IMG/VR virus record: IMGVR_UViG_3300025459_000003
Location: 1-64,000 of that record
From: a virus
DNA length: 64,000 nucleotides
Direction: 5' to 3' (one strand)
Below are positions 39,996-59,431 of the stretch, in pieces. The position numbers and the translations under genes were made by a program. The notes beneath the pieces are model-generated. The model had not been told where the DNA came from. It did no database searches and saw only the letters and a list, made by a program, of their open reading frames with translations. How positions within the stretch are numbered: the first letter of the stretch is position 1; every line of letters begins with the position of its first letter.

Positions 39996-40067
39996 GGGTA
40001 AGCGTCAAGGCGCATTTGTCTGGGTAAGTTGCCCGGAAAGACAACCCTCCCCGCAGCAAGGGGTAGA

Positions 40068-42041: not shown

Positions 42042-42050
42042 TGAGGCAAC

Positions 42051-42857
42051 ATGGCGCTTTCTGCGGCAAGCAAAATCCAGGGCCCCCTCGGCCCGACCGG
42101 CCCGACCGGCTATACCGGCTATACTGGCTATACGGGCCCCTCAGATGGCCCCATAGGCCCGACCGGCCCCACGGGGCCGGGGGGCGGGGGCTCGTCCTGG
42201 CCCTACGTCAACCTCGTCCCAGTCCCCCCCGACCTGGCCGGATGGGGGTGGGTAAACCTGCCCGGCGCGTCGGAAAACCTGACCAACGGCGTCCTGACGC
42301 TCTCCACGACCTCCACGGGGGGCTACCAGATGCACTGGTTCGGGCAAGCGCTTCCGGCCCCGCCCTGGACGGTGATCTGCGCCTACGCCCCTCCGGGCCC
42401 GTTCTATTCCATGTCCACGGACGTCTACTCCGCCCAGAGCGGGAACTGGTACGACGGGCTGTGCCTGTGGAACAGCGACACGTCGTTCCTCTACCTGAGC
42501 CACTGGCTCGGCGGCCAGATGGGGATGACCATCGAGTCGTACAACGAAACCCCGGGCCTGTCCCCCCCGTACAGCGACCCCGGCTTCGTGGTCGGCGGGC
42601 ATGACGTGACGAGCGGCTTCCCGCCGTTGATCTGGTACAAGGCCCACTTCGACGACGTCACCTACGACATCTACACGTCCCTTGAGCCCGCGAGCACGGG
42701 ATGGCTGAGGATTTGGTCGGCGACGCACCACACCTTCCTCGGGGACGGCACCCCCAAGTACAACCATGCGGGATGGGCCATCAACACGGGCAACATGGAG
42801 GCGGGCCACGACTTCACGGGCGGGGCGGTCCTGTCGTGGAGCGTCACGGATTCCTAG
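42051..42857 (+). CDS. Second collagen-like fibre protein
   Basis: GPTGYT tract and the same [17 protein letters not shown] linker, then a beta-rich domain. Confidence 0.75.
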   Translation: MALSAASKIQGPLGPTGPTGYTGYTGYTGPSDGPIGPTGPTGPGGGGSSWPYVNLVPVPPDLAGWGWVNLPGASENLTNGVLTLSTTSTGGYQMHWFGQALPAPPWTVICAYAPPGPFYSMSTDVYSAQSGNWYDGLCLWNSDTSFLYLSHWLGGQMGMTIESYNETPGLSPPYSDPGFVVGGHDVTSGFPPLIWYKAHFDDVTYDIYTSLEPASTGWLRIWSATHHTFLGDGTPKYNHAGWAINTGNMEAGHDFTGGAVLSWSVTDS

Positions 42858-43761: not shown

Positions 43762-43821
43762 GAGCAGTCTCCTCGCTTAAATTAGACGTAGCTTCCCGAC
43801 AGCCCTATAATACACCATTTC

Positions 43822-44469
43822 CTACTTTCCTTGCATGTTTCTTTTTGTCAGCCCATAGAGCACTGCTCCTATGCCGAACAGGCCCGACCCCAGGAGCATC
43901 AAGGTAGAAGGCTCGGGCACCGGGGCAGGGGGATCGGCAAGGAACTCCTGGCTGGAGCCCAGGTCGACGGGCGTCAGGACGACGAAACCGGGAAACTCGC
44001 CTGACCAATATGGCATTTGCGGCTCTTTCGCCGCTATCAGCCACGCCGCTGCATTAGCATCCAATCCTCCCTGCAATTTGGGGTCGGTATCGGCCCAGAT
44101 CGCATAGGTTATGTCGTTGGACTGGGACGGATTTAGGTTGAGCTGTTCGACCAGCCATGCCAGCTCGCTGTAGAGGTCGAACGTCGCATGGGGGGAGCCC
44201 CACTGAAATTCCGCGTCAACGAGGCCGTCCACGGTGATTGGCGAGACGTAGGCGTCCCATCCAGGGGAAACCTCGTCCAGGAAGTCGTCGCAATAGATGT
44301 CGATCTGCGGGCCTCCGTTGATGGTGCCGTAGTAGGGATCGGTGTAGTACCCTCCCTGGTTGGCCCCGTTTGGGCCGATGAAGCCCACCCGGACCGTGTC
44401 TGCGGCGGCGGACAGGGAGAATAGGATCGTCACGACGAACAGCAGTAGGGCATAGGAATGTCTTTTCAT
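43822..44469 (-). CDS. PEP-CTERM surface protein
   Basis: Signal MKRHSYALLLFVVTILFSLSAAA; C-terminal VPEPSTLMLLGSGLFGIGAVLYGLTKR; AAGGAG RBS. Confidence 0.85.
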   Translation of the reverse strand: MKRHSYALLLFVVTILFSLSAAADTVRVGFIGPNGANQGGYYTDPYYGTINGGPQIDIYCDDFLDEVSPGWDAYVSPITVDGLVDAEFQWGSPHATFDLYSELAWLVEQLNLNPSQSNDITYAIWADTDPKLQGGLDANAAAWLIAAKEPQMPYWSGEFPGFVVLTPVDLGSSQEFLADPPAPVPEPSTLMLLGSGLFGIGAVLYGLTKRNMQGK

Positions 44470-44573: not shown

Positions 44574-46343
44574 TCAGCGCACGAGGAAAAGTACCTTGGT
44601 GCCCTCGGGCGTCTCCACCTTCTCCTCCACGTAGTCCGGCATTATCCTGCGCAGCTCCATGTGGTAGGACGACCCCATCGGGCATATCGCCGCCACCCTG
44701 AACCCCCTGGCCACGGCATGGTTGACCTTGGCCCCGAGCAAATTCTTCCGCCAGTTGGGATCGGGCCTTCCCTGCGGCCAGGGCGGCCCCGCGATCGGAC
44801 GGGGCAGGGTGGGCACGGGGGGGCGTCCCGGGGCGGTCCTGGGGCCGCCCTGGAGCCACGGCGCGCCAATCCTGACGCCCGTCCCGGGAACGGGGAGATA
44901 CTTCCGCTTGAACTGCTCGTAGAGGCAGTCCTTCGGGTAGGAGGCGTCCCTGTCCAGGTTGCGCCCCCCCGCCCACTTCCCGCACCAGTTGTTCCTCACG
45001 AGGTGGACGGCCCTGCTGCCCGTCGGGACCTGGACGGGCGGGCCCACGAACGCGTAGGCGGGGGGGTTGAACGAGAAGTACGAGGGCAGCGACGGGAGGG
45101 CGAAGTGCCGCACCGCCTCCGTCAGGAGGTTCGGGCCGATGTCGGACCATTCGATCCTCTTCCAGTCCTTCTCCCGGCACTTCTCGATGAGCCATGCCAT
45201 GACGCGGGAGCCGGCCGGGGCCCTCATGCAGTCCCCGTTTATCTGGTCCTTGTGCCCGCTGTCCGGGTACTGGTTCACGAAGACATGCTCGTCCTTGGCG
45301 TCGAACGGCCTCACGCACACCGTGTCGGTGTCGACCCACCAGCCCCCCTTCTGGAGGAGCAGGTGGTAGCGGAACCAATCCGAGAAGTTCGTCAGGTTCT
45401 GGAACTTCTCGATGTCGGCCTCCGGCACCACCTCGTTCGCGTCCATGACCGCCGTGCCCTCGGGCACGTCCCTGCACGGCCCGTACGTGTAGAGGTGGAA
45501 CTCGTCCCCGTGGTGGAGGTAGGAGGCTATCGACAGCCTCTCCATCGTGGTGAGGCGGGCCCCGACCCACAGCGACTGCATGACGTTGCGCCCCTCCCTG
45601 TCGAGGTAGCGCTGCCTGAGCTGCTCGTAGGGGCTCCCCGGGGGGAAGACGCCGTCCTTGTCCATCCCCGTCCTCCCCCACATCTCGTTCCAGAGGTGGA
45701 CGGCGTAGGACTCGTCGGTGAGGTCGAACGTCGCCCCCGCCATGACCAGCTTCCTCACCTCCCATGCCATGACGGGGCAGAACGCCTGCGGCGGCAGGAC
45801 GTGCTGCCGGAGGCCGAGGGCGTCCACGGCGCTCTCGACGAGGGCGGGGCCGCTGGCGGCCCAGGGGATCTTCGCCACGTCCATCTCCCGGCACTTCTTC
45901 CAGCAATAGCCCATCGCCGAGCTTCCCGCTGGGACCTTGATGATCCCGTTGTTGACCTGCGTCCCCACGAACTTCATCGTCCCCTTGACGCTCGTGGCCT
46001 TGACCTCGCTGGAGAACACGTAGTCCTGCGCCATGTCGAACGGGCGGAGGCAGACGGTGTCGGTGTCGACCCACCACCCGCCCCTGTCCAGGAGCAGCTT
46101 GTAGCGGAAGAAGTCCGAGAATATGGCGGGCTTGGAGAAGTCCTTGTGGTGGAGGGAGGAGAGGGGGAGGACCTCCGCGGCGTCCTTCATGACGACCCCG
46201 GGCGGCACCCCCTCCACCCTGTCGTAGGCGTAGAGGTGGAACTCGTGCCCGTGGCGGAGGAAGGAGTTCAGGGCCGTCCGCTCCATCGTGGAGAGCCTGG
46301 GCCCGAGCCAGAAGCCCTGGATTACGCGGTTGTCCTCTCTCAT
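44574..46343 (-). CDS. Tandem-domain GT32-like (DXD) glycosyltransferase
   Basis: Two copies of SDxFRY..L...GGWWVDTD...GP; 20-bp DNA identity between 45322-45341 and 46057-46076. Confidence 0.85.
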   Translation of the reverse strand: MREDNRVIQGFWLGPRLSTMERTALNSFLRHGHEFHLYAYDRVEGVPPGVVMKDAAEVLPLSSLHHKDFSKPAIFSDFFRYKLLLDRGGWWVDTDTVCLRPFDMAQDYVFSSEVKATSVKGTMKFVGTQVNNGIIKVPAGSSAMGYCWKKCREMDVAKIPWAASGPALVESAVDALGLRQHVLPPQAFCPVMAWEVRKLVMAGATFDLTDESYAVHLWNEMWGRTGMDKDGVFPPGSPYEQLRQRYLDREGRNVMQSLWVGARLTTMERLSIASYLHHGDEFHLYTYGPCRDVPEGTAVMDANEVVPEADIEKFQNLTNFSDWFRYHLLLQKGGWWVDTDTVCVRPFDAKDEHVFVNQYPDSGHKDQINGDCMRAPAGSRVMAWLIEKCREKDWKRIEWSDIGPNLLTEAVRHFALPSLPSYFSFNPPAYAFVGPPVQVPTGSRAVHLVRNNWCGKWAGGRNLDRDASYPKDCLYEQFKRKYLPVPGTGVRIGAPWLQGGPRTAPGRPPVPTLPRPIAGPPWPQGRPDPNWRKNLLGAKVNHAVARGFRVAAICPMGSSYHMELRRIMPDYVEEKVETPEGTKVLFLVR

Positions 46344-46894
46344 TTTCGATCCCTGTAAATCCTCACTATGTCGTCCTTCGCCTCGAATTCCCAGCCGGGG
46401 GCCATGCCCAGGACGTAGCTCCTCAGGTCCGGCAACGAGGGGTACGGGGTGGGCGCACCCTTGAACTCCCTGGCATCGTCGATCAGGATGGCGCAGTCCG
46501 GGCAAAAGGAGAATATGGTCCTCAGTTCCTCCAGTATGGGGGTGTCGACCTTTCCCCGAGCGGTTATGCCCATGGACCAGTGGGCATCCAACCAGAACAG
46601 GAGCCTTTTGCCCAGGGAAGGAAGCACCTCGCCCAGGACCTCCCCGCTATCCCCCCAAAAAAGGTGAACCTTCGGGTTTCCCTTGAAAGTCTCCTGCGCC
46701 TTCCGGTAGAGGTCGGCCCCCAGCTCCACCGAGTAGATGTCGGAAAAGTGCGGCAGCATGGCGGAGACGGTGATTCCCAGGTACGTCCCGGTCTCGAAAA
46801 GGGCGTCGAGCCCGAACCTTCTGGCATGCTCCACGATGGCGGCGTGCTTTACGGGGTAGCCCCAGTCTGCGGGGGTGTCCCGGAACCCGATCAT
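46340..46894 (-). CDS. Class I SAM-dependent methyltransferase-like protein
   Basis: LFETGTYLG, FWLDAH, ILIDD motifs; ATGA coupling on both sides. Confidence 0.7.
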   Translation of the reverse strand: MIGFRDTPADWGYPVKHAAIVEHARRFGLDALFETGTYLGITVSAMLPHFSDIYSVELGADLYRKAQETFKGNPKVHLFWGDSGEVLGEVLPSLGKRLLFWLDAHWSMGITARGKVDTPILEELRTIFSFCPDCAILIDDAREFKGAPTPYPSLPDLRSYVLGMAPGWEFEAKDDIVRIYRDRK

Positions 46895-47622
46895 GGCCTC
46901 GTCCATCTGTCCTCCAGCCCATAGTCCACCCTCAGGATGGTCTCGGGCGCGTCCGACCCGAAGGTCAGGAAGTTGTTCAGGGTGTAGACCATCCCCAGCC
47001 TGTGCGCTATTACCGACGCCGCGGACAAGTCGTGCCTGTGCCCCAGCACTCGCGGGTCGGAGGATGCTGCCCCGCCTGCATTGTCCCACGGGCCGTAGAA
47101 GGAGCCGTTGTTGGCCGCCTCCATCCACTGCGACAAAAAGCTGCGGGCGACCTCCTTCTCAAGGTCCAGGCCCAGGGAGTGGGTGGCCAGTTTCGGTATC
47201 CCGAACGATTCCTCGCGGGTTACGTTGAGCAGGGGGAGGGCGGCATCGCTAATCCATTCCCCGGCGACCCACAGAGGCCTGCCGTTGAGCCACGGGGCGC
47301 TGGCGAGCCAGTATCCGGTCCCCTCCATCAGCTCCCATATCGGCAGGAGCGGACGGACCGCCACGACCGACGCGTCCGCCCAGAGGACTGACGTGAAGCC
47401 CGCGTCCGCCGCCGCTTGCATGGCATAGACCTTTGATGCATAGGGGGCGTCTTCCGGTGTCGGGCAGCCCATGGGGACGCCCCCCTTGTAGACCAGCAGC
47501 GCCACGTCGCCCCCGTTCCTGAGGAAGCCGGACGTCCACCGTCTTAGCCTGTCCGAGAGATGCCCGGGACGATGCCTGTCGGCCACCGGGGCGGTCGTCA
47601 CGATTGCCCTTCTTACCTCCAT
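46891..47622 (-). CDS. Putative nucleotide-diphospho-sugar transferase (GT-A-like)
   Basis: YASKVYAM...VLWADAS and HRHDLS motifs. Confidence 0.6.
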   Translation of the reverse strand: MEVRRAIVTTAPVADRHRPGHLSDRLRRWTSGFLRNGGDVALLVYKGGVPMGCPTPEDAPYASKVYAMQAAADAGFTSVLWADASVVAVRPLLPIWELMEGTGYWLASAPWLNGRPLWVAGEWISDAALPLLNVTREESFGIPKLATHSLGLDLEKEVARSFLSQWMEAANNGSFYGPWDNAGGAASSDPRVLGHRHDLSAASVIAHRLGMVYTLNNFLTFGSDAPETILRVDYGLEDRWTRP

Positions 47623-47655
47623 TGTTCCATTCTCCCCGAACGTTTCGGCGTATCC

Positions 47656-48867
47656 CTAAAGGCCCACGTTTTCGTCGTTCAATGCGGACTCCCTCCGATG
47701 GATGCCCTGAAGCTTCTCCACCAGGCCCCAATGGTCGTCCAGGCTGGCAAGCAGGCGTATCATGGCCTCCTTGAGGGCCCCCTCCGTCCTTTTCAGGTCC
47801 GGCGAGAAGTCGTGCTTGGGCATGATGTCCAGCATGGCATTGAAGGCCCTATGGCTATTCAGGATGTGGGGCGAACCCCAAAGCTCTGCGGTGGGTTCGT
47901 AGATGGGGTTGCCCGCCCTGTCCGTGTCCAGCACCCTTGGATGGGAGGCGCTGTTTATCCCCTCCATGTAGCCGGGGTGCCGGGAGGACGACGTTTCCTC
48001 CACCCCTACAAAGAACCGGACGTTGCCGGCCAGGGGCTGCAACGCTCCCGACTCGGGGTACCTTGCCACGATGCGTATCGGGGCATCGGGGTGCCTGGTT
48101 TTTTCTGCCAGGTATGCCAGGCTTCTCCCGAACCCGCCGAGGTCGGCCATCACCGGGCGGTCCCCCATGATGGCTTCCGTGTAGGCTATGTGGCCGGGGG
48201 AGGCCCTCTGCCTGGCTATCCGGCTGGTAAGGTAGTAATGCACCCGGTAACCTCCCCCCGCCAGCCTTCCGAACCTTTCCATGAGGCTGCTCCACAGGCA
48301 GCAGTCCCGGCTGGACATCAAAAGGTCCGTGGCATTCCCGGCATCCCTGTGCAGGAGCACGCTCGCCGCGAACAGGAACGGGAAGTTGAGCTGGGACTGG
48401 AGCAGCTCGTGCCCGCGGTATTCGGGGCTGTACATGGTCAGCCTGCCCTCCCGGCAGCACCTCGCCAGCCCTTCGAGACCCACATGCTCCCCCAGCCATG
48501 CCTCCATCGGGGTCATCCCGGCCTGGGTGGCCCTGATCGCTCTTATTCCCGCCCCTTCCGCCGACTGTACGTCGGACAGGAGGTTGTCCCCCGTGTGCTG
48601 CCTTACCGGAGGCAGCGTCTTCCATATGGAGCCGTCCCGCTTCCCCCCCTCCGTCACGAAGAGGCGGTTGGGAAGCCCCGCCACCTCCCTGAGCAGCCTT
48701 TCCGCCTTTGCCGGGTCGTAGTAGTCGCTGACCACGATGTCTTCGGGGCGCACCATCGCTATGTTCTCGGCAATGGGAAAGTGCCCTTCCTGGTTCCCGG
48801 CGGCCACTTTGGGGTTCCTGCCCGCCACGAGCGTGTCGAACAAGTCCCAGGACGAGACGTTGCACAT
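47656..48867 (-). CDS. HAD-superfamily hydrolase
   Basis: SWDLFDTL (motif I), HTGDNLLSD (motif IV). Confidence 0.7.
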   Translation of the reverse strand: MCNVSSWDLFDTLVAGRNPKVAAGNQEGHFPIAENIAMVRPEDIVVSDYYDPAKAERLLREVAGLPNRLFVTEGGKRDGSIWKTLPPVRQHTGDNLLSDVQSAEGAGIRAIRATQAGMTPMEAWLGEHVGLEGLARCCREGRLTMYSPEYRGHELLQSQLNFPFLFAASVLLHRDAGNATDLLMSSRDCCLWSSLMERFGRLAGGGYRVHYYLTSRIARQRASPGHIAYTEAIMGDRPVMADLGGFGRSLAYLAEKTRHPDAPIRIVARYPESGALQPLAGNVRFFVGVEETSSSRHPGYMEGINSASHPRVLDTDRAGNPIYEPTAELWGSPHILNSHRAFNAMLDIMPKHDFSPDLKRTEGALKEAMIRLLASLDDHWGLVEKLQGIHRRESALNDENVGL

Positions 48868-48877
48868 GATCCATTCC

Positions 48878-49432
48878 TTAAAGGCTTCTCTTTATGACCC
48901 CCAGGCCGAACTTCCCCGGAAGTATCTCCGCCTGCCAGCCCGTCCTGGCCACAAACTCGTCGTATGCCCTTCTGGGGTCCCCCCATTCCCACCCGTAGCC
49001 CCTGGTCGTTTCGGGGGATACCTCGGGGGCAACGTCATGCATGAGGACAAGGCCCCCCGGCCTGACCCGATCCGAATAGCACAGGTCGCTGCTCACGAAG
49101 GGGTAGCTATGGTTGCCGTCTATGAACAGGATATCCAGCAGGGGCGGGAGCTTCGCCGATACCGCCTCCCTCTCCCTGCTGTCGGAGAGTATGAAGGTCC
49201 AGTCGGGATGCCCTTCGAACATCGACAATGCCCCGCATTTCGGGTTTATGTCCACGCTGTACAGATGGCCGCCGTTCCGCTCTACCCCGAGGAGGAAGGC
49301 GGATGTGGAAACCCCATTCTGGACGCCTATCTCCAATATGTCGCCACGGGCATGTTCGAGGAGCCAAGGAGAGTAGTCCCACATGTCCGTCCAGTGATTA
49401 AGATTGGCGTCATACCTTTCTTTTGGTGTCAT
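48878..49432 (-). CDS. Class I SAM methyltransferase (Methyltransf_24-like)
   Basis: ILEIGVQNGVST, DILFIDGNHSY, RPGGLVLMHD. Confidence 0.8.
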   Translation of the reverse strand: MTPKERYDANLNHWTDMWDYSPWLLEHARGDILEIGVQNGVSTSAFLLGVERNGGHLYSVDINPKCGALSMFEGHPDWTFILSDSREREAVSAKLPPLLDILFIDGNHSYPFVSSDLCYSDRVRPGGLVLMHDVAPEVSPETTRGYGWEWGDPRRAYDEFVARTGWQAEILPGKFGLGVIKRSL

Positions 49433-49460
49433 TACAGCAGTGTCCCTCCCGTAATCCTCT

Positions 49461-50015
49461 CTATCTCCTCCCACGGAGCCCTTCCTCCTGAATCACCAGA
49501 AGGCAACTGTCGTCGTTCCCGGCAGGGTGCCTGGACAGGGGAAACTTGACCAGGAAGGACTCATAAGGAATGGCTGCCTTTAGCCTTTCCATGTTTTTGG
49601 GGCGGACGTCTTCCACCACATACAGCCCGTTGGGGGAAAGGAACGGGATGAGGGCGAGGGCGACGAGGGTCTGGTGCTCCAGCTCGTGCTCACCATCATC
49701 AATGATTACGTCTAGGTTTGTACCCATTGCTCTGGCCGCTGCCTCCAAGCTCTTACAATCCAACTGGTCGCCCCGAAAGCACCTTATCCTCCCTTCATCA
49801 AAGAGGCAGGACGGTTCTATGTCCACGCCGAATACCTCGGCATCGGGAAGGTACTCCGCCCACATCCTTAGGCTGGCTCCCTTGTACACGCCTATCTCCA
49901 GAAGCCGCCCGACGTGCCTTGGGGAGAGCAGCGCGGCGTAAAAGGGGGTATAGTTGTGCCCATCCGGCCCTTTGTCGGTGCCGTACTTCCCAGCAAGCTC
50001 ACATAGCTTTGTCAT
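49461..50015 (-). CDS. Sugar O-methyltransferase-like protein (GTDK family), paralog 1
   Basis: KYGTDK, LLEIGV, DVIIDDGEH, GLYVVED. Confidence 0.8.
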   Translation of the reverse strand: MTKLCELAGKYGTDKGPDGHNYTPFYAALLSPRHVGRLLEIGVYKGASLRMWAEYLPDAEVFGVDIEPSCLFDEGRIRCFRGDQLDCKSLEAAARAMGTNLDVIIDDGEHELEHQTLVALALIPFLSPNGLYVVEDVRPKNMERLKAAIPYESFLVKFPLSRHPAGNDDSCLLVIQEEGLRGRR

Positions 50016-50955
50016 GGTCTTTTTCCTTTGCCCTGGGGTGCGCCAGCGCGTCCCTCAGTGCCTGTTCGAGGCTTTCCCTCGGCTGCCATCCATAGCGGTG
50101 CCGCATTCTGGAGTTGTCCGCCGCAAGCATGGGACGGTCTACCGCCCTTTGGTGCTGGGGGGAGGATACGCACTCGATGCTTTCCCCGAGGATGGCGGAA
50201 AGCACCTTGACCACCTCGACGGGGCTCCACGCCCTCCCCGTCCCCAGGTTGCAGGTATCGACGGAGTCGCCTATTCCCGAGACCATCCGGACGATTCCCC
50301 TCGCCACGTCCCCGGCGTGTACGTAGTCCCTCTTCGACTCCAGGTTCCCGACCTCGATCCGCCTTGAGACCTTCAGCCTTTCCAGGATTTCGGGGATGAG
50401 GTGCGGGTTCGTCTCGTATGCCCCCACCACGTTGAAGATGCGCCCGACCGCAAACCTGCATCCGCTCCGGGAGGCCGCCTCCTGCACCTGCTGCTCGTTC
50501 CTTATCTTGCAGAGGCCGTAGGTGTCCATCGCCCCCAGGCTGTCGGTCTCTACATGCGGCGTCAGGGAGCTTTTGTATACCGCCGCCGTGGAGGCAAGGA
50601 AGAACCGCTCCGCCCCATTGGCTACGGCGGCATCGAGGACGGCCTGGGTCCCGTCCACGTTGGTCCTCCACGCCTCCTCGGGGTGCTCGTTGCAATAGGG
50701 GATGTAGTGGAGCGCCGCAAGGTGTACCACGATGGACGGCTTGACCGTCCCCATGACCCTCTCGAACTCCGGCGAGAGGATGTCCAGTTTCAGGAACTCG
50801 ACCCCCTCCGGGGGCTTCCCCGCCCGCCATCGGCATAGCTTGTCCGCTACCACGATCCTCGAAAACCCCCCTTTGACCAGCTCCAGCAGGAGGTTCGTCC
50901 CGATGAACCCGCATCCCCCGGTAATCAGGAACCCGCTGTCCGTCGGTATCATCAT
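49999..50955 (-). CDS. NAD-dependent sugar epimerase/dehydratase (GalE-like SDR)
   Basis: ITGGCGFIG, HLAA, STAAVY, YGLCK, RIFNVVG, RDYVH. Confidence 0.85.
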   Translation of the reverse strand: MMIPTDSGFLITGGCGFIGTNLLLELVKGGFSRIVVADKLCRWRAGKPPEGVEFLKLDILSPEFERVMGTVKPSIVVHLAALHYIPYCNEHPEEAWRTNVDGTQAVLDAAVANGAERFFLASTAAVYKSSLTPHVETDSLGAMDTYGLCKIRNEQQVQEAASRSGCRFAVGRIFNVVGAYETNPHLIPEILERLKVSRRIEVGNLESKRDYVHAGDVARGIVRMVSGIGDSVDTCNLGTGRAWSPVEVVKVLSAILGESIECVSSPQHQRAVDRPMLAADNSRMRHRYGWQPRESLEQALRDALAHPRAKEKDHDKAM

Positions 50956-51659
50956 ATCCCCCTGTACACCCAGCTCGGGTCGAAAAGCTCCTGCCAGTTG
51001 CTTACGTCGATGCCCAGCTTGTCGCCAAGCTCCCGCAGTACGAATATGGCGTTCCCGCCCCCTCCCCAGCACGGGGCCACCTCCGGCGGCCTTGGGCTTG
51101 CGGTGTGCAGGGCCAGCTCGTAGCCCTTGCGTTTTGCCAGCTCCACCATGGACGAGATGGAGGCCCCCCTGCGGTCGTCGCCCTTCTCGCCCGTTGGACC
51201 TTTCTCCGGGATCATCCGTTCTCCGGGGGGGACGGCCGAAAAGACCTCTATCACCATGACCCGGGGACGGTAGGATTCCAGGGACTCCCAGAGGAAGAAG
51301 TCGTCTCCGTCCACGTCGAGGGACAGCAGGTCGAAGTCTTTCGGCAGTCCGGTCGACCTTAGGATTTCCTCGAAGTTGCCGGGCGTCACGAGGGCGTTGA
51401 TTAGGGTCGCCTTGAATGCCGACATGTTCTTCTCAAGCTGGTCGAATTCCCGCTTCTGGCATTCGATGAGGACTCCGGACCACCCGCGCTGGGCTACCAG
51501 GGCATGGGTATTGGACCATGTCACCCCATCCAGCGCCCCGAGTTCGCAGCACCATTTGTTGGAGACGCCGACCCTTTCGAAAATGGCCTCCAGGACGCCG
51601 TCTTCCCCGCTTTGGCTGGTGACGTTCCTCCTTAGCGAATTCAGCCAGATGCTTGACAT
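50952..51659 (-). CDS. FkbM-like methyltransferase
   Basis: SQSGEDG, ELGALDG...SNT, GWSGVLIE, LLSLDVDG, PRVMVIE. Confidence 0.75.
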   Translation of the reverse strand: MSSIWLNSLRRNVTSQSGEDGVLEAIFERVGVSNKWCCELGALDGVTWSNTHALVAQRGWSGVLIECQKREFDQLEKNMSAFKATLINALVTPGNFEEILRSTGLPKDFDLLSLDVDGDDFFLWESLESYRPRVMVIEVFSAVPPGERMIPEKGPTGEKGDDRRGASISSMVELAKRKGYELALHTASPRPPEVAPCWGGGGNAIFVLRELGDKLGIDVSNWQELFDPSWVYRGI

Positions 51660-52243
51660 GGGGGTCCGCCTCCTATGGTCTCTCCCCTTATCACTATCAG
51701 CTGGTCGCTGATGTATTTTTCCAGGTTGAAGCTCACCAGCTCGTGCCTGTAGGGAAGGTTGGGAACCACCTTGTCCGGTGCCCATACGTCTTCGATGATG
51801 TAGAGCCCGTCGGGCTTGAGCAGCAGGGGGATGAGGACGACGGCCGACAGCACCTGGTGCTCGGGGAGGTGGGAGCCGTCGTCTATCACGATGTCGAACC
51901 CCCCGCCCAGCTTGGCCGCCGCCGACCGCAGGGATTCCTCGCTTCCCTGATCGCACTGGAACGACCTGATCCTCCCCTCGTTGATGAGGATGTCCTCGCG
52001 GATGTCCAGGGCGTATATCTCCGCCTCGGGGAAGTACTCCTGCCACATGAACAGGCTCGCCCCGGACCTGTAGTTCTCCCCCACCGTGTAGCACATGGTT
52101 TCGGGGTACCCGATGCCTATTTCCAGCAGCTTCTTGACGTTCCTCCCCTTGAACATCTCGTAGTAGTAGGGCGTGTAGCCGTGGCAAATCGAGGGAACCT
52201 TGTCGGTCCCCCACTTGGCGGCAATCTCGCAAAGCGGCGTCAT
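51641..52243 (-). CDS. Sugar O-methyltransferase-like protein (GTDK family), paralog 2
   Basis: KWGTDK, LLEIGIG, FDIVIDDGSH, GLYIIED. Confidence 0.8.
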   Translation of the reverse strand: MTPLCEIAAKWGTDKVPSICHGYTPYYYEMFKGRNVKKLLEIGIGYPETMCYTVGENYRSGASLFMWQEYFPEAEIYALDIREDILINEGRIRSFQCDQGSEESLRSAAAKLGGGFDIVIDDGSHLPEHQVLSAVVLIPLLLKPDGLYIIEDVWAPDKVVPNLPYRHELVSFNLEKYISDQLIVIRGETIGGGPPCQASG

Positions 52244-52431
52244 GCCCTCGTCCACCTTTCCGGTATCCTGTCCGGGGATTCCGGGGAGCCATCGGCCAGC
52301 CATCGCTTGGGGGCGACCCTCGTCCGGTTGCCGATGTTCGCCCTTATGTCGAACACGAGGTCATCGCGGCCCATGAACTGCGAATAGAAGCCCGCCATGG
52401 TTTCCATCTTTCCTACCCTATCTTCATCCAT
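52240..52431 (-). pseudogene. Deletion chimera: FkbM N-terminus fused to GT11 C-terminus
   Basis: FYSQF..DDLVFDIRANIGNRT joined directly to VAPKRWL...IPERW. Confidence 0.6.
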
Positions 52432-53240
52432 CTTTCCGGAGCAATGTCCTTGGTATCAAGGAACGCCGCGGCCGGGCCTAACCATCGCCTGGGGGCGATG
52501 CACGTCCTTCCGGGCCTCGTGTCCCCCAACCACGCGCCCCACCACGAGAAGGAACTGTTGGCGATCACGCCATGGCTGCAGAGGCCCATCAGCCATATGT
52601 CCTCGTGCTCCTTGCCGGGCACGTCCGACCCGAACAGCCTTCCTCCCGGCTTGTTGTGGTCGACTACCCGGAGGCCGGGAAACGCCTCCTTGCACCATGC
52701 GGGGTCGTCCGAAAACACGAAGAACTCGGCGTTTCCCACCCTCTCCTTTATTATCGACATGGCGGCCGAGTAGTAGTCCATGCCCAGGTTGGTGTGGTAT
52801 TCTTCCTGGCCCACGTAGTCGGTCCTGCGGACGTGCAGGAAGGCGCTCCTTTCCTCGCAGCCGAGGATTTCCCTTGCCACGGCCTGGGATGCCCCGCTCA
52901 GTTGGTTTTCCGGGCTGCGGAGCGAGAATGCATCCCTCACCAGCGGCACGTCGAAGTACTTCTCGGTCTGCCACTGCCCGTCGAAGGATGCCCATTGCTT
53001 GTCGTAGACTCCCGGATCGAAGGCATATGTATGATTCCATTCGTAAAAAATGGGAGCGGGCATCTCGGAAACGAAGGTTATCGGGACGTCGAACACCCCG
53101 AGCGCATAGCATCTTTTCAGGTCGGAATCCGGGATGTCCCGGGTAAAGGAAAGCGCCTCGCCCCTGGCCTTGGACACCGATATTCCGAAAGCGTACTGGA
53201 ACATCTGGTTGCCCAGGCCGCCCTTGAGCAGGACTACCAT
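52413..53240 (-). CDS. GT11 alpha-1,2-fucosyltransferase-family glycosyltransferase
   Basis: GGLGNQMFQYA, HVRRTDY, FSDD, NSSFSWWGAWL, APRRW. Confidence 0.9.
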   Translation of the reverse strand: MVVLLKGGLGNQMFQYAFGISVSKARGEALSFTRDIPDSDLKRCYALGVFDVPITFVSEMPAPIFYEWNHTYAFDPGVYDKQWASFDGQWQTEKYFDVPLVRDAFSLRSPENQLSGASQAVAREILGCEERSAFLHVRRTDYVGQEEYHTNLGMDYYSAAMSIIKERVGNAEFFVFSDDPAWCKEAFPGLRVVDHNKPGGRLFGSDVPGKEHEDIWLMGLCSHGVIANSSFSWWGAWLGDTRPGRTCIAPRRWLGPAAAFLDTKDIAPERWMKIG

Positions 53241-53884
53241 AGGGATTTTGCCTCCTTGTAGGCATCGAACATCTGTTCCGGAAGGTACGCCCTTTTCCAT
53301 CCACCCACCGATGAAAGATGGCAGGAGATGGTGTCCTTGGCGGGCACGGAGCCCGGGTAGAACTGGTACCTTGCGTCGTCGTGCGGGGATATCCCGTGCT
53401 TCGCCAGCGTGTCCGCCACGAAAACGTCCTCCGGCCCCCCTCCCGGCCACGGCTCGGCGGCCGCGACCAGCTCCATCGCCCTCCTGCTCAGGCAGTATCC
53501 CGATCCCCCGCTGGCGAAGATCACGGGGGGGCATTCCCGGTTCACGCCCCCGACGTAGTCGTGCTGCTCGAACCCGCTGCTGGCGAGGTTGGACGGGACG
53601 ACCAGGGTGTCGATGTCCGCCTTGTACACGTGGTCGAATCCCTGGCCCAGCGCCCACCCCACGATGCCCCTCGTCTTCAGGAGCAGGCCCATATAGTCGT
53701 CCGGGACGTCGAGGAAGACCTCGTCCACGCAGATGCGGTCCGGCGGGGGGTTCCCGAGGAAGAACCGGCAGTCCCATTCCGAGGAGGGGGGCACGTCTCG
53801 TATCCAGGTCTGCCTCTGGGCGTCCTGCCATCGCCTGTGCCTGTGGCAGCTCAGGATTGCTATGAGGGTGCGTCCCGGGCCCAT
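53234..53884 (-). CDS. GT31/Fringe-like glycosyltransferase
   Basis: RQTW, DDY..L..KT, YKADIDT, SGGSGY.LSR, EDVFV. Confidence 0.75.
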   Translation of the reverse strand: MGPGRTLIAILSCHRHRRWQDAQRQTWIRDVPPSSEWDCRFFLGNPPPDRICVDEVFLDVPDDYMGLLLKTRGIVGWALGQGFDHVYKADIDTLVVPSNLASSGFEQHDYVGGVNRECPPVIFASGGSGYCLSRRAMELVAAAEPWPGGGPEDVFVADTLAKHGISPHDDARYQFYPGSVPAKDTISCHLSSVGGWKRAYLPEQMFDAYKEAKSLW

Positions 53885-53886
53885 GC

Positions 53887-54852
53887 CTATCCTTTCGCCC
53901 TGGCCATCGCCGTCACCCATGCGTAGGTCTTCCCGAGGCCGTCGATCAGGGGGGCCGAGGGGGCCCACCCCAGCTTCTGGTGGATCAGGCGGTTGTCGGA
54001 GTTGCGTCCCCTGACCCCGAGCGGGCCGGGGACGTGGCGGATGCCCAGGTCCTTGCCAGCGACCTTCATGACCATGCGGGCGAGCTCGTCTATCGTGACC
54101 ATCTCGTCCGAGCCGATGTTCAGGGGCCCCGGAAGGCCCGACCGCACCAGCCGCCTGATGCCCTCCACGCACTCGTCGATGTAGAGGAAGGACCGGGTCT
54201 GCCTCCCGTCGCCGAAGATTTCTATCTCGCCCCCCTCGGGGGCCTGCGCCACCTTGCGGCACAGGGCGGCCGGCGCTTTCTCCCTTCCCCCCTCCCACGT
54301 GCCCTCCGGGCCGAAGATGTTGTGGAACCTGGCCACGTGGATGGGGACGTAGTAGTTCCTGTGGTAGGCCGCATAGAGCCTCTCGCTGAACAGCTTCTCC
54401 CACCCGTACTCGCTGTCCGGCGCTGCCGGGTAGGCGGAGTCCTCGGCGCAGTTGGGGTTGTCCGGGTCGACCTGGTTGTGGGCCGGGTAGATGCAGGCCG
54501 AGCTGGAGTAGAAGTACCTCCCGACGCAGTGCTTCTGGCCGACCTCCAGCATGTTCAGGTTGATGGTCGCGGAGTTGTGCATGATGGCGGCGTCGTTGTC
54601 CCCGCTGAACACGTACTGCGCCCCTCCCATGTCGGCGGCAAGCTGGTAAACCTCGTCGAACCCGCCGTTGAGCGCCGCCCAGCAGGACGACGTGTCCCTG
54701 AGGTCCCGCAGCAGGAACTCGTCCGCCGCCGACGGGCAAAACTCGTGCTCCTTGATGTCCACCCCGCGGACCCAGTACCCCTCCAGCTTGAGCCTCTTCA
54801 CCAGGTGGCCCCCGATGAAGCCCCCTGCCCCGCATACCAGCGCTTTCTTCAT
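53887..54852 (-). CDS. GDP-mannose 3,5-epimerase-like SDR
   Basis: GAGGFIG, LAADMGG, SSSACIYP, YGWEKLFSE, RFHNIFGP, GGREKAPAALCRK, GVRGRNSDN: GME-family signature. Confidence 0.85.
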   Translation of the reverse strand: MKKALVCGAGGFIGGHLVKRLKLEGYWVRGVDIKEHEFCPSAADEFLLRDLRDTSSCWAALNGGFDEVYQLAADMGGAQYVFSGDNDAAIMHNSATINLNMLEVGQKHCVGRYFYSSSACIYPAHNQVDPDNPNCAEDSAYPAAPDSEYGWEKLFSERLYAAYHRNYYVPIHVARFHNIFGPEGTWEGGREKAPAALCRKVAQAPEGGEIEIFGDGRQTRSFLYIDECVEGIRRLVRSGLPGPLNIGSDEMVTIDELARMVMKVAGKDLGIRHVPGPLGVRGRNSDNRLIHQKLGWAPSAPLIDGLGKTYAWVTAMARAKG

Positions 54853-54871
54853 GTCGTCCCTCCATGCCAAA

Positions 54872-55522
54872 TCATAGCGTCCCCTTCGTGATCCCCTCTA
54901 TCGTCTCCCACGGCACCTCGGCGAACGATGCGTTGGGCACCCTCTTCGGGGCGGCGTTCCCGGGATGGATGGCCGAGACGAGCAGCCCGAGGTCGTGCAT
55001 GTCCAGGCACCGGTGCTCCGGCACCTTGGATAGGAATACCGCATCGGCCCCCTGCCGCATCTCCTCGAACTTGTTGGCCTCCCATAGGGAGCGCCGGAAG
55101 GCGGGGGCCGCCACCCACCTCCTCGGGGTCAGGTTCCTGTAGAGGAACGCCCTCCGCGTCCCGTGGAGGTAGTAGTACAGGCTCCCCGTGCCCGCCAGGT
55201 CCAGGGCTGGATTCTCAAGGACGGAGGCCTGCTTCCCCACCCTGTCGGGGGCGTACCAGTCGTCGTCGTCCCATACTATGGCCGCGTCCCCCGCGGCGTG
55301 CCCCATGGCCAGGTTCATCAGCCTTCCGTGGAGCAGCCGGGGGCCCGGCACCCTCACGTACTTTATCCTCGGGTCCTCGGGGAGCATGTCCTTTATGGGG
55401 TCGGCCCCGTTGTCCACCACTATCCATTCCATGCGGGGCCAGCCCTGGGACTGGAAGCACCGGATGCACCGGGGCCAGAACTCCCTCCGGTCGGCGGTCG
55501 GCGTCAGGCAGGAGACAAGCAT
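54872..55522 (-). CDS. GT2-family glycosyltransferase
   Basis: VSCLTPT, EWIVVDNG, WDDDDWY.PDR. Confidence 0.8.
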   Translation of the reverse strand: MLVSCLTPTADRREFWPRCIRCFQSQGWPRMEWIVVDNGADPIKDMLPEDPRIKYVRVPGPRLLHGRLMNLAMGHAAGDAAIVWDDDDWYAPDRVGKQASVLENPALDLAGTGSLYYYLHGTRRAFLYRNLTPRRWVAAPAFRRSLWEANKFEEMRQGADAVFLSKVPEHRCLDMHDLGLLVSAIHPGNAAPKRVPNASFAEVPWETIEGITKGTL

Positions 55523-56277
55523 GCAAGACCTCCTTCTTTTTGTCGTCGCTCGCGACGTTCTATCTCAAAGTTCCTTAGATAGTTGATGGCCTGAAGTATG
55601 AGCACCTGGTTGTCCCGGAAGTTTATGAGCCCCCATTTGCACTTTGGACAAAGCAAGCCCCTAATTCCCCTCGTCACCCGATCACGGTCAATATGACGAC
55701 CTTGGTCACTCTCGGATGAGAGGGTATCGCGACAGATGGCACAGCAACCTCCTTGCTTTTGCTCAAGGGCCAGGAGTCCCGCATCGTCGATTCCCCTTTG
55801 GTACCGACGCATGTACCGACGCATATGTGGGGCGTTTTGCTCTTTTAGACACTTATGGCATCTGCCTCTTTTGCCGCTTAGGGTGTACTTGCATTTTCCA
55901 AAATCATCAAGGGGAAGCCACTTTTCGCATGCCGGGCAATATTTTTGACCGTCTTTAATGAGCTGTCGCCCTGTCCCGTTCATTCCGCTTGCATTTATAT
56001 ATTCAAACCCGCCCTTTCCACCTTCGTGGATGTTGTAGCAATGTGGGTCCTGACGTGCTTCTTTGAGGAGGTCTATCTCCTTTGCGTAGGCATCTGTCGA
56101 GGCTGAAAACTGAAAGAGGACCCTCTTAACAAACGCTGCCTTTCCGTACTTTTTGATGGCAGCGTTTATAATCTTTCCGGAGCCTAGATAGCTGTCTTCG
56201 GGGTCGCTTGTTTTATGTACCCCTATGTAATAATGGGAGTTGACGAGGTTGGTCGTTCTGTAGACCGTGAAGGTCAT
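55504..56277 (-). CDS. GIY-YIG (Seg-like) homing endonuclease with a degenerate endonuclease VII domain
   Basis: VYRTTNLVNSHYYIG...YLGSG; C-terminal CAIC...IDRDR...RGLLCPKCK; low GC. Confidence 0.75.
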   Translation of the reverse strand: MTFTVYRTTNLVNSHYYIGVHKTSDPEDSYLGSGKIINAAIKKYGKAAFVKRVLFQFSASTDAYAKEIDLLKEARQDPHCYNIHEGGKGGFEYINASGMNGTGRQLIKDGQKYCPACEKWLPLDDFGKCKYTLSGKRGRCHKCLKEQNAPHMRRYMRRYQRGIDDAGLLALEQKQGGCCAICRDTLSSESDQGRHIDRDRVTRGIRGLLCPKCKWGLINFRDNQVLILQAINYLRNFEIERRERRQKEGGLACLSPA

Positions 56278-56300
56278 GATGGGTTTCCAAAAACTGCTGC

Positions 56301-56354
56301 CTATACTAAAGAAGCAAAAGACAGGATTTCTTGACTTCCTAGTCCTTATTACAG
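56301..56354. promoter_or_regulatory. Divergent pair of late-type promoters
   Basis: Minus strand GTCTTT-tgcttctt-TAGTATAG (56322-56301); plus strand GACTTC-ctagtcct-TATTACAG (56333-56354). Confidence 0.55.
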
Positions 56355-56387
56355 AGACCGCCCAACAGGGGTACAGGAGAGGACGAC

Positions 56388-57155
56388 ATGGCACTATCGA
56401 TCAGGCAAAAAGCCAAGAACTACACGATCTACCCGGAAATCCCGCTGAACGTGATCCTGCCGAACGCGGTGGCGGCGAACAGCTTTCTCGCCGTCCTGGT
56501 GTTCGCCCACAGGACCCCGGATTCGTTCAACGTGCTCTACCTCGACGCAGAAACCATAGCCCCGAACGTTTTCGACGACAAGACCGATACGTTCACCCTC
56601 CAGGACAAGGTCGTCAACCTTTCCCAGGAATCGGGCACCTTCAGTCCCCCACTTAGCCCGCCTATCGTCTCTCCTGACGTCTCGGGATACTTTCCCAGCG
56701 TCTACGTCTTCACCGCCCCCGCCACCGTGGGAGCGCAGAAGGTCACCATCGTGGACCCCGGAAACAGCAACGCCGGGTCCCCGCCCTTCGCGCCCCCGAT
56801 AGAGTACGGGAGGCCGGTGTTCGATGGCGGAATCGAGGCGGTGGTGTACGAGATCGCCAAGCCGACCTCGATATCCGTGGACAAGCATGCCCATGGCACC
56901 TCCAACGAGACCCCCCTGGTGGCGGCCCTCACCCCGACCGGGATCAACGAGTTCCTGCTGGAGGCGGCGATCCTAATGGACAGCACGGCCCTGGTCCCGG
57001 CCTCCACGGCGACCCTGCTCGACTCCGGGTCCTTCCCCGCCGGAAGCTCGTCCTGGGTCGTGCAGGGGACCGTACAGACCGCCGCCGTGGCGGCCTCGGG
57101 ATTCGGGAACCCCGTCAAGTACGTCGGGGGCATCGTGGCGGTGGCTTTGGCGTAG
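56388..57155 (+). CDS. Hypothetical virion protein
   Basis: 255 aa, strong RBS, beta-rich, three SPP motifs, own promoter and terminator. Confidence 0.65.
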   Translation: MALSIRQKAKNYTIYPEIPLNVILPNAVAANSFLAVLVFAHRTPDSFNVLYLDAETIAPNVFDDKTDTFTLQDKVVNLSQESGTFSPPLSPPIVSPDVSGYFPSVYVFTAPATVGAQKVTIVDPGNSNAGSPPFAPPIEYGRPVFDGGIEAVVYEIAKPTSISVDKHAHGTSNETPLVAALTPTGINEFLLEAAILMDSTALVPASTATLLDSGSFPAGSSSWVVQGTVQTAAVAASGFGNPVKYVGGIVAVALA

Positions 57156-59254: not shown

Positions 59255-59431
59255 AGGACTGGCGGGCGTGCGGCGCGATGCGGCGAGCACGAAGAACGCG
59301 ATGGCCGTCGAGACAGAAAACGGGGCACCGTGCCTGTCCTAGCGGCTTCCGGGCGACGAGCGGGGCATGCCAGCAACCGCGTAGAGAGCGAAGCCACGCC
59401 ACCGGGATTCCGGCCACGCCCGTCCTTTCAC

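Follow-up and report, generated by a model that had tools for sequence, protein, structure and literature searches.

The capsid glycosylation machinery of chlorovirus PBCV-1 includes a multidomain GT-GT-methyltransferase, A064R, the G-X-T repeats of BclA carry O-glycans, and TPR-glycosyltransferase (GT) fusions such as OGT and FlmG have proteins as their targets. Among phages, Cluster O mycobacteriophages have their capsid and tail tube modified by an O-methyltransferase and three GTs (PMC11600133), and virion glycosylation in Clusters O and F is described as the work of an O-methyltransferase with two to four tandem GTs (Freeman et al. 2023, as relayed in PMC11600133 and PMC12619734). The cyanomyovirus S-SCSM2R carries an island with 13 GTs, including GT11 and GT2 (PMC12801897).

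Here we describe a glycan cluster in a window of 64,000 nucleotides (positions 1 to 64,000 of IMG/VR record IMGVR_UViG_3300025459_000003). The contig, of peat-soil origin, carries sheath, MCP and TerL genes that identify it as phage and, at 157.7 kb, represents ~49% of the ~320-kb genome of a jumbo phage whose host group is acidobacterial. Genes g2 to g14 make up a glycan assembly line that the phage encodes and that would work in the cytoplasm, and we propose, at a probability of roughly one half, that its acceptor is a surface protein of the virion. From an earlier note on this DNA, this model retains a glycan pathway that is large, looks cytoplasmic and has the means for O-methylation, and gives up the late promoter and the glycan gene at the head.

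The GC3 frame plot and ORF analysis place the cluster at 44574-55522 on the minus strand, with 13 genes. The tight packing claimed earlier is borne out: from 55522 down to 44574 the genes overlap or abut, with spacings of -19 to +33 nt except for a single 109-nt gap. None of the 13 products has a signal peptide, as the earlier note had it, or a TM-grade segment, and all are predicted to be soluble. The cluster lies at the junction of the packaging and replication modules, outside any structural operon; this junction is empty in Tunturi_5 and is a typical accessory-gene site. The gene taken for the head of the operon (55504-56277/56394) turned out to be a non-glycan gene: g1 (55504..56394, minus strand, likely ATG at 56277) encodes a GIY-YIG-like and endonuclease VII protein (Pfam Endonuclease_7, 1e-9; PHROG matches of 1e-29 to a homing endonuclease and of 3e-22 to endonuclease VII), and these matches together with its low GC3 in the frame plot rule it out as a glycan gene. 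It overlaps the start of the GT2 gene g2 by 19 nt, and relatives keep only its EndoVII half at the same position (0.55 of the protein covered). The promoter motif thought to be common to the cluster head and the structural genes has no statistical support, no motif common to the two being enriched above chance, and the late-promoter argument for cluster expression is not supported.

All five GT genes and both nucleotide-sugar SDRs (g3 and g8, by Pfam) reported earlier were recovered, each on the minus strand. The GT2 gene g2 (54872..55522; Pfam PF00535, 5e-15; DDDD at residues 85-88) leads the glycan genes in every relative, with orthologues of 51-67% identity in G001-G005 and G010 and no sequence match among 50,697 phage records. 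A GT31-family, C1GalT1/Fringe-like transferase is encoded by g4 (53234..53884; DID at residues 90-92), whose profile matches C1GalT1 (PDB 7q4i, 1.5e-13), B3GalT5 (7e-10) and Fringe (4e-7), and a GT11-family transferase of the alpha-1,2-fucosyl/L-galactosyl type by g5 (52413..53240; Pfam PF01531, 2e-19; HVRRTDY at residue 136). The putative GT-A-like/DUF1647-like transferase g12 (46891..47622) lacks a DxD motif and was assigned through a structure atlas, where it matches a viral "glycosyltransferase family" cluster (TM 0.85) and DUF1647 (TM 0.73). The last gene, g14 (44574..46343), is a tandem GT32 with a Pro-rich C-terminal tail, in which Pfam Gly_transf_sug matches two stretches (2e-14; also Caps_synth and Gb3_synth) and each half carries GGWWVDTDTVC, placing DTD at residues 93 and 338.

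Sequence matches establish two epimerases that would supply the donors. The first, g3 (53887..54870), is a GDP-mannose 3',5'-epimerase (GDP-L-galactose/GDP-L-gulose synthesis) with the conserved blocks SSACIYP, YG.EKL and GGREKAPAA; it matches PDB 2c59 (325 bits, E 4e-96, ~60% identity) over its full length. A fucose synthase was rejected on this match, that of a GDP-mannose 3,5-epimerase with GDP-L-galactose as product. The second, g8 (49999..50955), is a GalE-like UDP-hexose 4-epimerase of the extended SDR type (Pfam Epimerase, 2e-44; PDB 4zrm, 2e-29; top NCBIfam match GalE, under cutoff) that would give UDP-galactose or UDP-GalNAc.

The five SAM methyltransferase-like genes claimed earlier are likewise present on the minus strand, support for one of them (g13) being weak. 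They comprise a class I enzyme, g6 (51641..52303; phrog_21658 methyltransferase, 8e-16; LLEIGIG motif), and its paralogue g9 (49461..50015), which with g10 (48878..49474) belongs to Methyltransf_24 (PF13578, 2e-8 and 5e-17, respectively); an FkbM-type (Methyltransf_21) enzyme, g7 (50952..51659), close to FkbM clusters in the atlas (features 0.97, structure TM 0.86); and the class I-like g13 (46340..46906; ETGTYLG motif), the weakest assignment of the cluster (hhalign E 0.005 against g10, 0.06-0.5 against methyltransferase profiles in the PDB). What had been called a HAD hydrolase does contain a HAD domain, but its identity changes: g11 (47656..48867, minus strand) has a HAD phosphatase at residues 1-117 and a PRTase-like domain at ~145-400, a CrpP-CriT-type arrangement mapped after PMC10299916. 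Its profile matches Bcs3 (6e-8) and 7shg, Foldseek gave 5e-11, and its AF2 model (pLDDT 93) resembles Bcs3 379-970 (Z 19.3), 7shg (Z 16.8) and the T4 Pnkp phosphatase (Z 13.6; all VIA), making g11 a candidate PRPP-dependent ribofuranosyltransferase.

Homology and fold thus establish six transferase activities and up to five SAM methyltransferases in the cluster. Chain building would involve GT2, GT31, GT11, GT-A-like, a pair of GT32 modules and the PRPP-dependent ribofuranosyl transferase/phosphatase, together with up to five methyltransferases, and the product would be a hetero-oligosaccharide bearing O-methyl groups, probably with Gal, L-Gal and Ribf among its sugars. The virion surface protein would be glycosylated prior to assembly, the candidates being the collagen-like proteins col1 and col2 and/or p56388.

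The gene p56388 (56388..57155, plus strand) is divergent from the cluster head and encodes an all-beta protein with Ser-Pro-Pro loops; its model is a low-confidence jelly-roll with the loops predicted to be disordered. It is co-inherited with the cluster, adjoining GT2 in G001-G005 and G010, and is absent from the complete G006 and from Tunturi_5; it is a candidate acceptor or partner. In six relatives the cluster stands beside p56388 at the same packaging/replication junction, with varying gene content. The relatives also encode a pyruvyl transferase and a GT6, and their multidomain ORFs include an 822-aa GT32-MT-GT31 and a 1,227-aa GT2-TPR-MT-GT32. If the virion is indeed the target, such fast turnover among close relatives would reflect diversifying selection on an exposed glycan.

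The fibre genes col1 (40029-42041) and col2 (42051-42857), both on the plus strand, encode Gly-X-Thr collagen-like proteins (Pfam Collagen, 2e-12, in 40029..42857), and the Thr-at-Y repeats described before are there, with Thr at 34/51 Y positions, 1.7 kb from the cluster. This phage alone has collagen genes beside the cluster, none of its close relatives doing so. A GT2-TPR-MT-GT32 enzyme adjoins collagen in 5/6 viral loci, the corresponding counts in controls being 1/42, 0/15 and 0/12; the co-occurrence data are phylogenetically non-independent, since they stem from what is in essence a single clade. In G002, a complete relative, this GT2-TPR-MT24-GT32 enzyme is sandwiched by two same-strand col1 homologues, and a GT31 paralogue lies 4.4 kb upstream. 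Where contigs share 92% and 70% identity, a collagen ORF of the G-X-T/S type begins 34-37 nt past the enzyme. In Tunturi_5, a GT and a nucleotidyltransferase are convergent to a collagen tail fibre. The idea of a collagen-fibre acceptor gains support from the gene order in G002.

Soluble enzymes, the lack of export families in the contig and in G002, the retention of the cluster beside p56388 and the collagen-flanked enzyme of G002 thus speak for virion glycosylation; the unsupported late motif, the accessory-type junction, an MCP without a Ser/Thr-rich tail (none tracking the cluster was found) and a coverage of about half of the genome speak against it. Solubility of the GTs is also compatible with lipid-linked assembly. 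Pathways that make lipid-linked O-antigen and capsule typically include enzymes of the CrpP-CriT type (PMC10299916), and soluble GTs and FkbM methyltransferases are no less typical of them. A serious rival, though a less likely one, is that the cluster remodels the host envelope: its GTs would extend a glycan carried on undecaprenyl-PP, on the inner side of the host membrane, begun by host enzymes or, in relatives, by a PglC/WbaP-type enzyme of the phage, and host flippase, exporter and ligase would display it, altering O-antigen or EPS during infection, e.g., to block superinfection or keep progeny off debris. GT2, GT11, GT32/Caps_synth, FkbM, CrpP-CriT and the relatives' pyruvyl transferase and GT6 are classic O-antigen/CPS components, the locus is an accessory-gene junction, hosts of the nearest cultured phage produce extracellular polysaccharide (PMC11924767), and comparable cyanomyovirus clusters were interpreted as host cell-wall modification (PMC12801897). 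The earlier statement that flippase, polymerase and lipid-carrier transferase are missing holds for the 157.7-kb contig (~49% of the genome), in which searches for PglC/WbaP, WecA, Wzx, Wzy/ligase, ABC-2 and STT3 families came up empty, but not for relatives, as G002 and G003 encode an EPS_sugtrans phosphoglycosyltransferase, an EPS-type polyprenyl-phosphate sugar transferase (293 bits). This enzyme is, however, missing from the present phage at the syntenic site and throughout 157 kb; in G002 it lies ~90 kb from the cluster amid unrelated genes, and that 99%-complete genome also has no Wzx, Wzy/ligase/PglL, ABC-2, STT3 or WecA. The GT enzymes inside collagen fibre operons point instead to protein targets.

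The distance between collagen genes and cluster was given correctly before, but the gap holds two PEP-CTERM genes that had been overlooked, pep1 (43822-44469) and pep2 (43051-43728), directly downstream of the cluster on the same, minus strand. Both products are predicted to be secreted, with matches to Pfam PEP-CTERM (2e-5 and 3e-5) and NCBIfam PEP-CTERM families. PEP-CTERM proteins are linked to EPS loci and thought to carry glycans, and in G002 and G003 a pep1 homologue immediately follows the phosphoglycosyltransferase. That pep1 and pep2 are the acceptors, glycosylated in the cytoplasm or by host machinery and sorted to the surface by a host exosortase, nevertheless appears improbable: each has its own copy of an early-type promoter box, GTGTATTAT, confined to these two genes and matching the early cassette, so that their regulation is probably separate from that of the cluster; the cluster is kept in relatives without adjoining pep genes, the Tunturi_5 homologue gp179 sits among replication genes, and their Ser/Thr content is unremarkable. 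Attachment of the oligosaccharide to modified bases of phage DNA, for restriction evasion, is very improbable, despite a DNA methylase close by (59330-61078) and phage GTs that can add diverse glycans to DNA (Pyle et al. 2024, as cited in PMC12619734), since the required thymidylate-synthase (ThyA)-like hydroxymethylase is missing from this contig, from the complete G002 and from G003, and the GT families, the sugar epimerases, the ribofuranosyltransferase and the five O-methyltransferase-like genes point to the assembly of an oligosaccharide more than to glucosylation of bases.

Compared with known systems, g11 shares with the capsule polymerase Bcs3, with E. coli K18 and with T. composti 7shg (PMC10299916) the order of a HAD phosphatase followed by a PRTase-like domain with helical bundles, but it is a stand-alone 403-aa phage protein of 13-15% sequence identity and putative activity. 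As in the BclA exosporium filaments of Bacillus, Thr occupies the collagen Y position and glycan and methyltransferase genes adjoin collagen (in the window and in G002), whereas the enzymes here are unrelated, with no rhamnose or anthrose pathway, and fibre glycosylation is putative. Like the islands of large cyanomyoviruses (PMC12801897), this cluster brings many GTs and NDP-sugar epimerases, of putative function, together in a myovirus that is large and lytic; those islands contain KDO and LPS genes and are read as host cell-wall modification, whereas this cluster has no LPS-core genes, many methyltransferases and linkage to fibre genes and p56388. PBCV-1 also pairs viral sugar-nucleotide enzymes with cytoplasmic GTs and sugar O-methyltransferases, and the relatives here carry GT-MT fusions; in sugar set, this bacterial virus would differ by using L-Gal and Ribf where PBCV-1 has Fuc, Rha and Xyl. 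The mycobacteriophage systems, as outlined in PMC11600133 and PMC12619734, share compact sets of soluble phage GTs and methyltransferase(s) near structural/packaging genes, no membrane machinery, and a proposed protein acceptor on the virion. The present phage differs in its Gram-negative, acidobacterial host and in an MCP without a Ser/Thr-rich C-terminus, and its cluster has 13 genes rather than 3-4, with its own GDP-L-Gal and UDP-Gal donors and a putative PRPP-dependent ribofuranosyltransferase.

The window spans the first 64 kb of a single viral contig of 157,656 bp (62% G+C, 26 tRNA genes) that encodes a tail sheath, a major head protein (MCP) and a large terminase (TerL). CheckV puts its completeness at 49%, leaving about 51% of the genome outside the contig, and given that a close relative, G002, is 99% complete at 316,945 bp, we take the phage to be a jumbo myovirus with a genome near 320 kb. 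Among cultured phages, the nearest to it is Tunturiibacter phage Tunturi_5 (309 kb; 45% identity in TerL, 69% in MCP), whose host is an acidobacterium from tundra soil (PMC11924767). When 25 kb of the window were searched by megablast against the phage collection, nothing matched. The MCP (16196-17197, +) is 87-93% identical among relatives whose TerL identity is only 54-77%, and in the closest of them it carries a common 11-residue Ala/Asn-rich loop insertion, absent in G010, G006-G008 and Tunturi_5. A tRNA-Gly(GCC) called by ARAGORN at 20334-20413 (+), within the structural gene block, overlaps a 96-aa ORF, lies far from both tRNA arrays (111-139 kb) and may be spurious.

Because most long ORFs are spurious at 63% G+C, genes were resolved by a GC3 frame plot of the window. 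The plot shows 13 abutting minus-strand genes, g2 to g14, from 55522 down to 44574, with spacings of -19 to +33 nt and a single 109-nt gap. The gene list of the earlier note, which comprised glycosyltransferases (GTs), nucleotide-sugar SDRs, methyltransferases and a HAD hydrolase, largely stood, while g3, g8, g11 and the gene at the cluster head had to be re-identified or refined. The GTs are a GT2 (g2), a GT31 (g4), a GT11 (g5), a GT-A-like/DUF1647-like protein (g12) and a tandem GT32 (g14, with GGWWVDTDTVC in both halves); g3 and g8 are the two SDRs, and g6, g7 (FkbM), g9, g10 (Methyltransf_24) and, weakly, g13 are methyltransferase-like. For g5, the match to PF01531 (70 bits, cutoff 23.9) is accompanied by an HVRRTDY sequence at residue 136 that corresponds to the HxRRxD donor-binding motif. 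A profile built from nine homologues of g4 matched C1GalT1 (7q4i, E 1.5e-13) as well as B3GalT5 and Fringe, and D90 and D92 of its DxD motif are invariant. Residues of about 490-535 of g14 (44574-44870, -) form a Pro/Arg-rich low-complexity stretch, followed by a C-terminal tail of roughly 55 residues.

Full-length similarity identifies g3 as a GDP-mannose 3',5'-epimerase (GME): residues 3-321 align with Arabidopsis GME (PDB 2c59) at 325 bits (E 4e-96) and approximately 60% identity, the SSACIYP, YGWEKL and GGREKAPAA blocks are identical, and the catalytic Cys, the Tyr-x3-Lys pair and the second Lys are all present (residue numbering after Major et al. 2005). The phage would therefore make GDP-L-galactose (or GDP-L-gulose) and not GDP-fucose; GDP-fucose synthase was the best NCBIfam match, but at 85 bits against a cutoff of 500, and GME was preferred. 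The second SDR, g8, is classed by its sequence as GalE-like. Single-sequence PDB searches of g7 and g11 returned no match, and both were assigned through profiles, folds and the structure atlas. The family of g11, the “HAD hydrolase”, is without Pfam annotation; a HAD-like phosphatase domain is indeed present, but by fold match the protein is a two-domain enzyme of CrpP-CriT type. Its predicted model (pLDDT 93) matches residues 379-970 of the capsule polymerase Bcs3 at Z 19.3 and the T. composti ribofuranosyltransferase 7shg at Z 16.8, with residues 1-117 resembling the T4 Pnkp phosphatase (Z 13.6) and residues 145-400 matching HGPRT at Z about 6. In Bcs3, this span comprises the CrpP phosphatase and CriT, a PRPP-dependent ribofuranosyltransferase (domain map, PMC10299916). 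With a HAD-like phosphatase followed by a PRTase-fold domain in the model, g11 is a candidate PRPP-dependent polysaccharide ribofuranosyltransferase.

Homology and fold show soluble proteins for the supply of donors (GDP-L-Gal, UDP-Gal/GalNAc and PRPP), for six or more transfer steps and for as many as five methylations. The product would be an O-methylated hetero-oligosaccharide, and GT31, GT11 and, in relatives, GT6 would suggest an epitope logic of the Gal-beta-1,3 / L-Gal(Fuc)-alpha-1,2 / alpha-1,3-Gal type. We propose, with a probability of roughly 0.35, that the Gly-X-Thr collagen-like tail fibres of the phage and/or the product of p56388, a gene divergent from the cluster head, receive a coat of this self-made, heavily O-methylated L-galactose/ribofuranose oligosaccharide. 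That the acceptor lies among virion surface proteins, namely these fibres and/or p56388, has about even odds. A C-terminal Ser/Thr tail that would make the MCP an acceptor was looked for and not seen: its C-terminus is not Ser/Thr-rich, and no acceptor-like feature of it tracks the cluster.

The cluster was found at a conserved position. Relatives with 74-77% TerL identity have the common layout TerL, p38212, p38989, cluster, EndoVII gene, p56388 and p57424 (p-numbers being window positions), with the cluster on the opposite strand and GT2 first, p56388 divergent and p57424 sigma-like. In Tunturi_5, the sigma factor and replication genes come almost immediately after TerL, and the cluster therefore occupies a module junction. 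G001-G005 and G010 each carry a GT2 of g2 type with p56388 next to it in divergent orientation, and both genes are absent from the complete G006, from Tunturi_5 and from the fragments G008 and G009; the complete G007 has no GT2 of this type and only a weak, partial p56388 match (E 1e-7). The p56388 protein is all-beta, with a predicted fold of low confidence (pLDDT 57) whose low-confidence loops are Ser-Pro-Pro segments. Its jelly-roll matches (minor tail proteins, the BclA C-domain, TNF-like lectins), at Z 6-8.5 and within the noise range of the tool, offer a weak lead. Turnover of cluster content is strong: relatives add GT6, a second GT11, polysaccharide pyruvyltransferase, FkbM and MT24 genes, and the G002 cluster holds an 822-aa ORF (stretch L049:13447-15915) that joins GT32, MT and GT31 in one frame and a 406-aa ORF (L049:17293-18513) in which GT2 is fused to a g13-like segment. 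By swapping GT, methyltransferase and pyruvyltransferase modules, close relatives would diversify the virion glycan.

Co-occurrence of the cluster with Gly-X-Thr fibres in related phages, a check suggested in the earlier note, was not seen as adjacency: the collagen genes of relatives are not syntenic with it, and no close relative has collagen or PEP-CTERM genes beside it. The complete G006 and G007 carry other GT2 genes and no collagen gene, and Tunturi_5 has a collagen fibre and no g2-type cluster. A different association was found in G002, where a 1,227-aa GT2-TPR-Methyltransf_24-GT32 enzyme (L122:3120-6803; G002 240619-244302, -) sits between two Gly-X-Thr collagen genes homologous to the window's col1, all on the same strand, and also adjoins a gene with a ConA-like (Laminin_G_3) lectin domain; 4.4 kb upstream there is a separate GT31, a paralogue of g4. 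In other viral contigs, homologues of this enzyme (three at 92% and one at 70% identity) all have a collagen-repeat ORF beginning 34-37 nt behind them, whereas collagen ORFs were seen at 1/42, 0/15 and 0/12 control loci. The enzyme was not found in our contig or in ten other records, a negative that says little as most of them are fragments. In Tunturi_5, a convergent beta-1,4-GT gene and a nucleotidyltransferase gene come 3.7 kb after that of the collagen tail fibre gp29, and the window shows this convergent layout too. At the level of gene order, these arrangements are suggestive of a link between GT and fibre genes in this phage group, the lineages being related and the association short of statistical proof. 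A second Gly-X-Thr collagen-like gene lies outside the window at contig positions 156053-157489 (+), 167 nt from the contig end, so that its downstream neighbours fall beyond the contig; the equivalent position in G002 would hold a GT enzyme.

The main rival, serious but less likely, is a lipid-linked assembly that exploits host machinery and remodels the O-antigen or EPS. Pathways of O-antigen/EPS type typically use these enzyme families, and the relatives G002 and G003 encode an EPS-type polyprenyl glycosylphosphotransferase (TIGR03025, 293 bits), so the earlier statement that no flippase, polymerase or lipid-carrier transferase is visible stands for our contig but not, as to the transferase, for these relatives. 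Families of PglC/WbaP, WecA, Wzx, Wzy/ligase/PglL, ABC-2 and STT3 are absent from the 157,656-bp contig and, with the exception of PglC/WbaP, from the complete G002. By Pfam, no initiating polyprenyl-phosphate sugar transferase (PF02397, PF00953) was found in the contig, which is about 49% of the genome, and no flippase, polymerase/ligase or ABC exporter (PF01943, PF04932, PF01061) in the contig, G002 (99% complete) or G003. In g2-g14 there is no TM-grade segment and, as the earlier note held, no signal peptide.

Glycosylation of PEP-CTERM proteins is an unlikely fate for the oligosaccharide. The stretch of 1.7 kb that separates the cluster from the collagen genes holds two secreted PEP-CTERM genes, overlooked at first, pep1 (43822-44469, -) and pep2 (43051-43728, -). 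Both match PF07589 and TIGR02595 and have the make-up of exosortase substrates, with a signal peptide and a C-terminal PEP motif (VPEP/TPEP), hydrophobic TM helix and basic K/R tail. Each is preceded by GTGTATTATRGGRCTGT, an early-like box (also written GTGTATTAT) found at no other gene in the window and similar to the GTGTATA(A/C)T with which the five early cassettes end; the only match to the cassette pattern beyond the five is the pep1 upstream region. Owing to this box and this likeness, the two genes are probably expressed separately and early. In-frame codons upstream of the pep2 GTG (43728-43776, -) resemble a signal-peptide n-region, with a GAGGAG RBS 7 nt before an ATA, and the true start is probably there, at a non-canonical ATA or ATT codon. 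Proteins of pep1 type are rare (7 clusters in 5.8 billion proteins). The Tunturi_5 homologue, gp179, lies among replication genes; those of G002 and G003 directly follow the EPS-type transferase, and both this transferase and a pep1-type gene are missing from the syntenic neighbourhood in our contig. A protein identical to pep1 has been recorded from a contig of 250 kb, suggesting that a longer assembly may exist. As a finding in its own right, the PEP-CTERM proteins of these phages, joined in relatives by an EPS-initiating transferase, appear to be a means of interfering with the exosortase/EPS system of the host; our literature search found no paper on phage PEP-CTERM genes or on such interference. 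Glycosylation of DNA is the least likely reading, because a ThyA-like hydroxymethylase (PF00303) is absent from our contig, G002 and G003.

A late promoter common to the cluster head and the structural genes, as proposed earlier, was not borne out: no candidate box was both specific and enriched above chance. The sequence GATAGTCGAAA, which lies upstream of the sheath gene and at the cluster head in relatives, occurred 12 times against 7.3 expected, and the TATAGG box upstream of the head gene g1 showed no greater intergenic enrichment than TATAAT and also occurs inside an early cassette. Neither TATAGG nor TAGAG variants were enriched in sense-upstream positions, and GATAGTCGAAA, TATAGG, TAGGCAG, [ATG]TAGAG and TATWWAGAG were all discarded as non-enriched or non-specific. 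A one-motif Gibbs sampler run on 96 upstream regions found no coherent motif, k-mer enrichment over the genome mostly reflected CRISPR and other repeats, and sigma-70 and terminator consensus scans stayed at chance level. The head gene itself (g1, 55504-56277/56394, -), which falls inside the range given earlier, encodes a GIY-YIG-like and endonuclease VII protein and no glycan enzyme. Its GC3 is much below that of its neighbours and relatives have the EndoVII half only, so that the N-terminal GIY-YIG-like part looks like a recent mobile-element addition. Next to the cluster, p57424 (57424-58176, +) keeps 77-79% identity among relatives, contains two region-4-like HTH segments and matches in position gp3 of Tunturi_5, annotated as “RNA polymerase sigma factor”; it is a probable phage sigma-like regulator.

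If the coating of fibres and/or p56388 is correct, a bacterial virus would offer a parallel to the glycosylated BclA filaments and to the fibrils of giant viruses. Modification of virion proteins would bring two rare chemistries into phage biology, namely GDP-L-galactose synthesis by a plant-like GME and PRPP-dependent ribofuranosylation. It would also extend the phenomenon to jumbo phages of Gram-negative hosts (Acidobacteriota), at a complexity comparable to that of giant viruses, and tie it to fibres of collagen-like type, which many phages have. As a hypervariable locus that swaps modules, the cluster also offers glycoengineering a natural supply of soluble GTs and sugar methyltransferases. 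To our knowledge, virion glycosylation in tailed phages has experimental support in mycobacteriophages only, with 2-4 GTs. There, an O-methyltransferase and three GTs modify capsid and tail tube (PMC11600133). Our cluster resembles that system in its tandem phage GTs and O-methyltransferase, with no membrane components here. The mycobacteriophage glycans are on capsid and tail tube C-termini; the MCP C-terminus here is not Ser/Thr-rich. Searched by tblastn, g2 matched none of 50,697 phage records and so showed no sequence homology to mycobacteriophage GTs. Unlike a Wzx/Wzy- or ABC-dependent O-antigen/CPS locus, our contig yielded no initiating transferase, flippase, polymerase/ligase or exporter. 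Phage GT clusters as such are already known, and cyanomyoviruses have up to 13 GTs of unproven function (PMC12801897); compared with these clusters, the present locus is set apart by its size and methyltransferase load, its plant-like GME and CrpP-CriT chemistry, the co-inheritance of p56388 and the fibre-embedded paralogous enzymes of its relatives.
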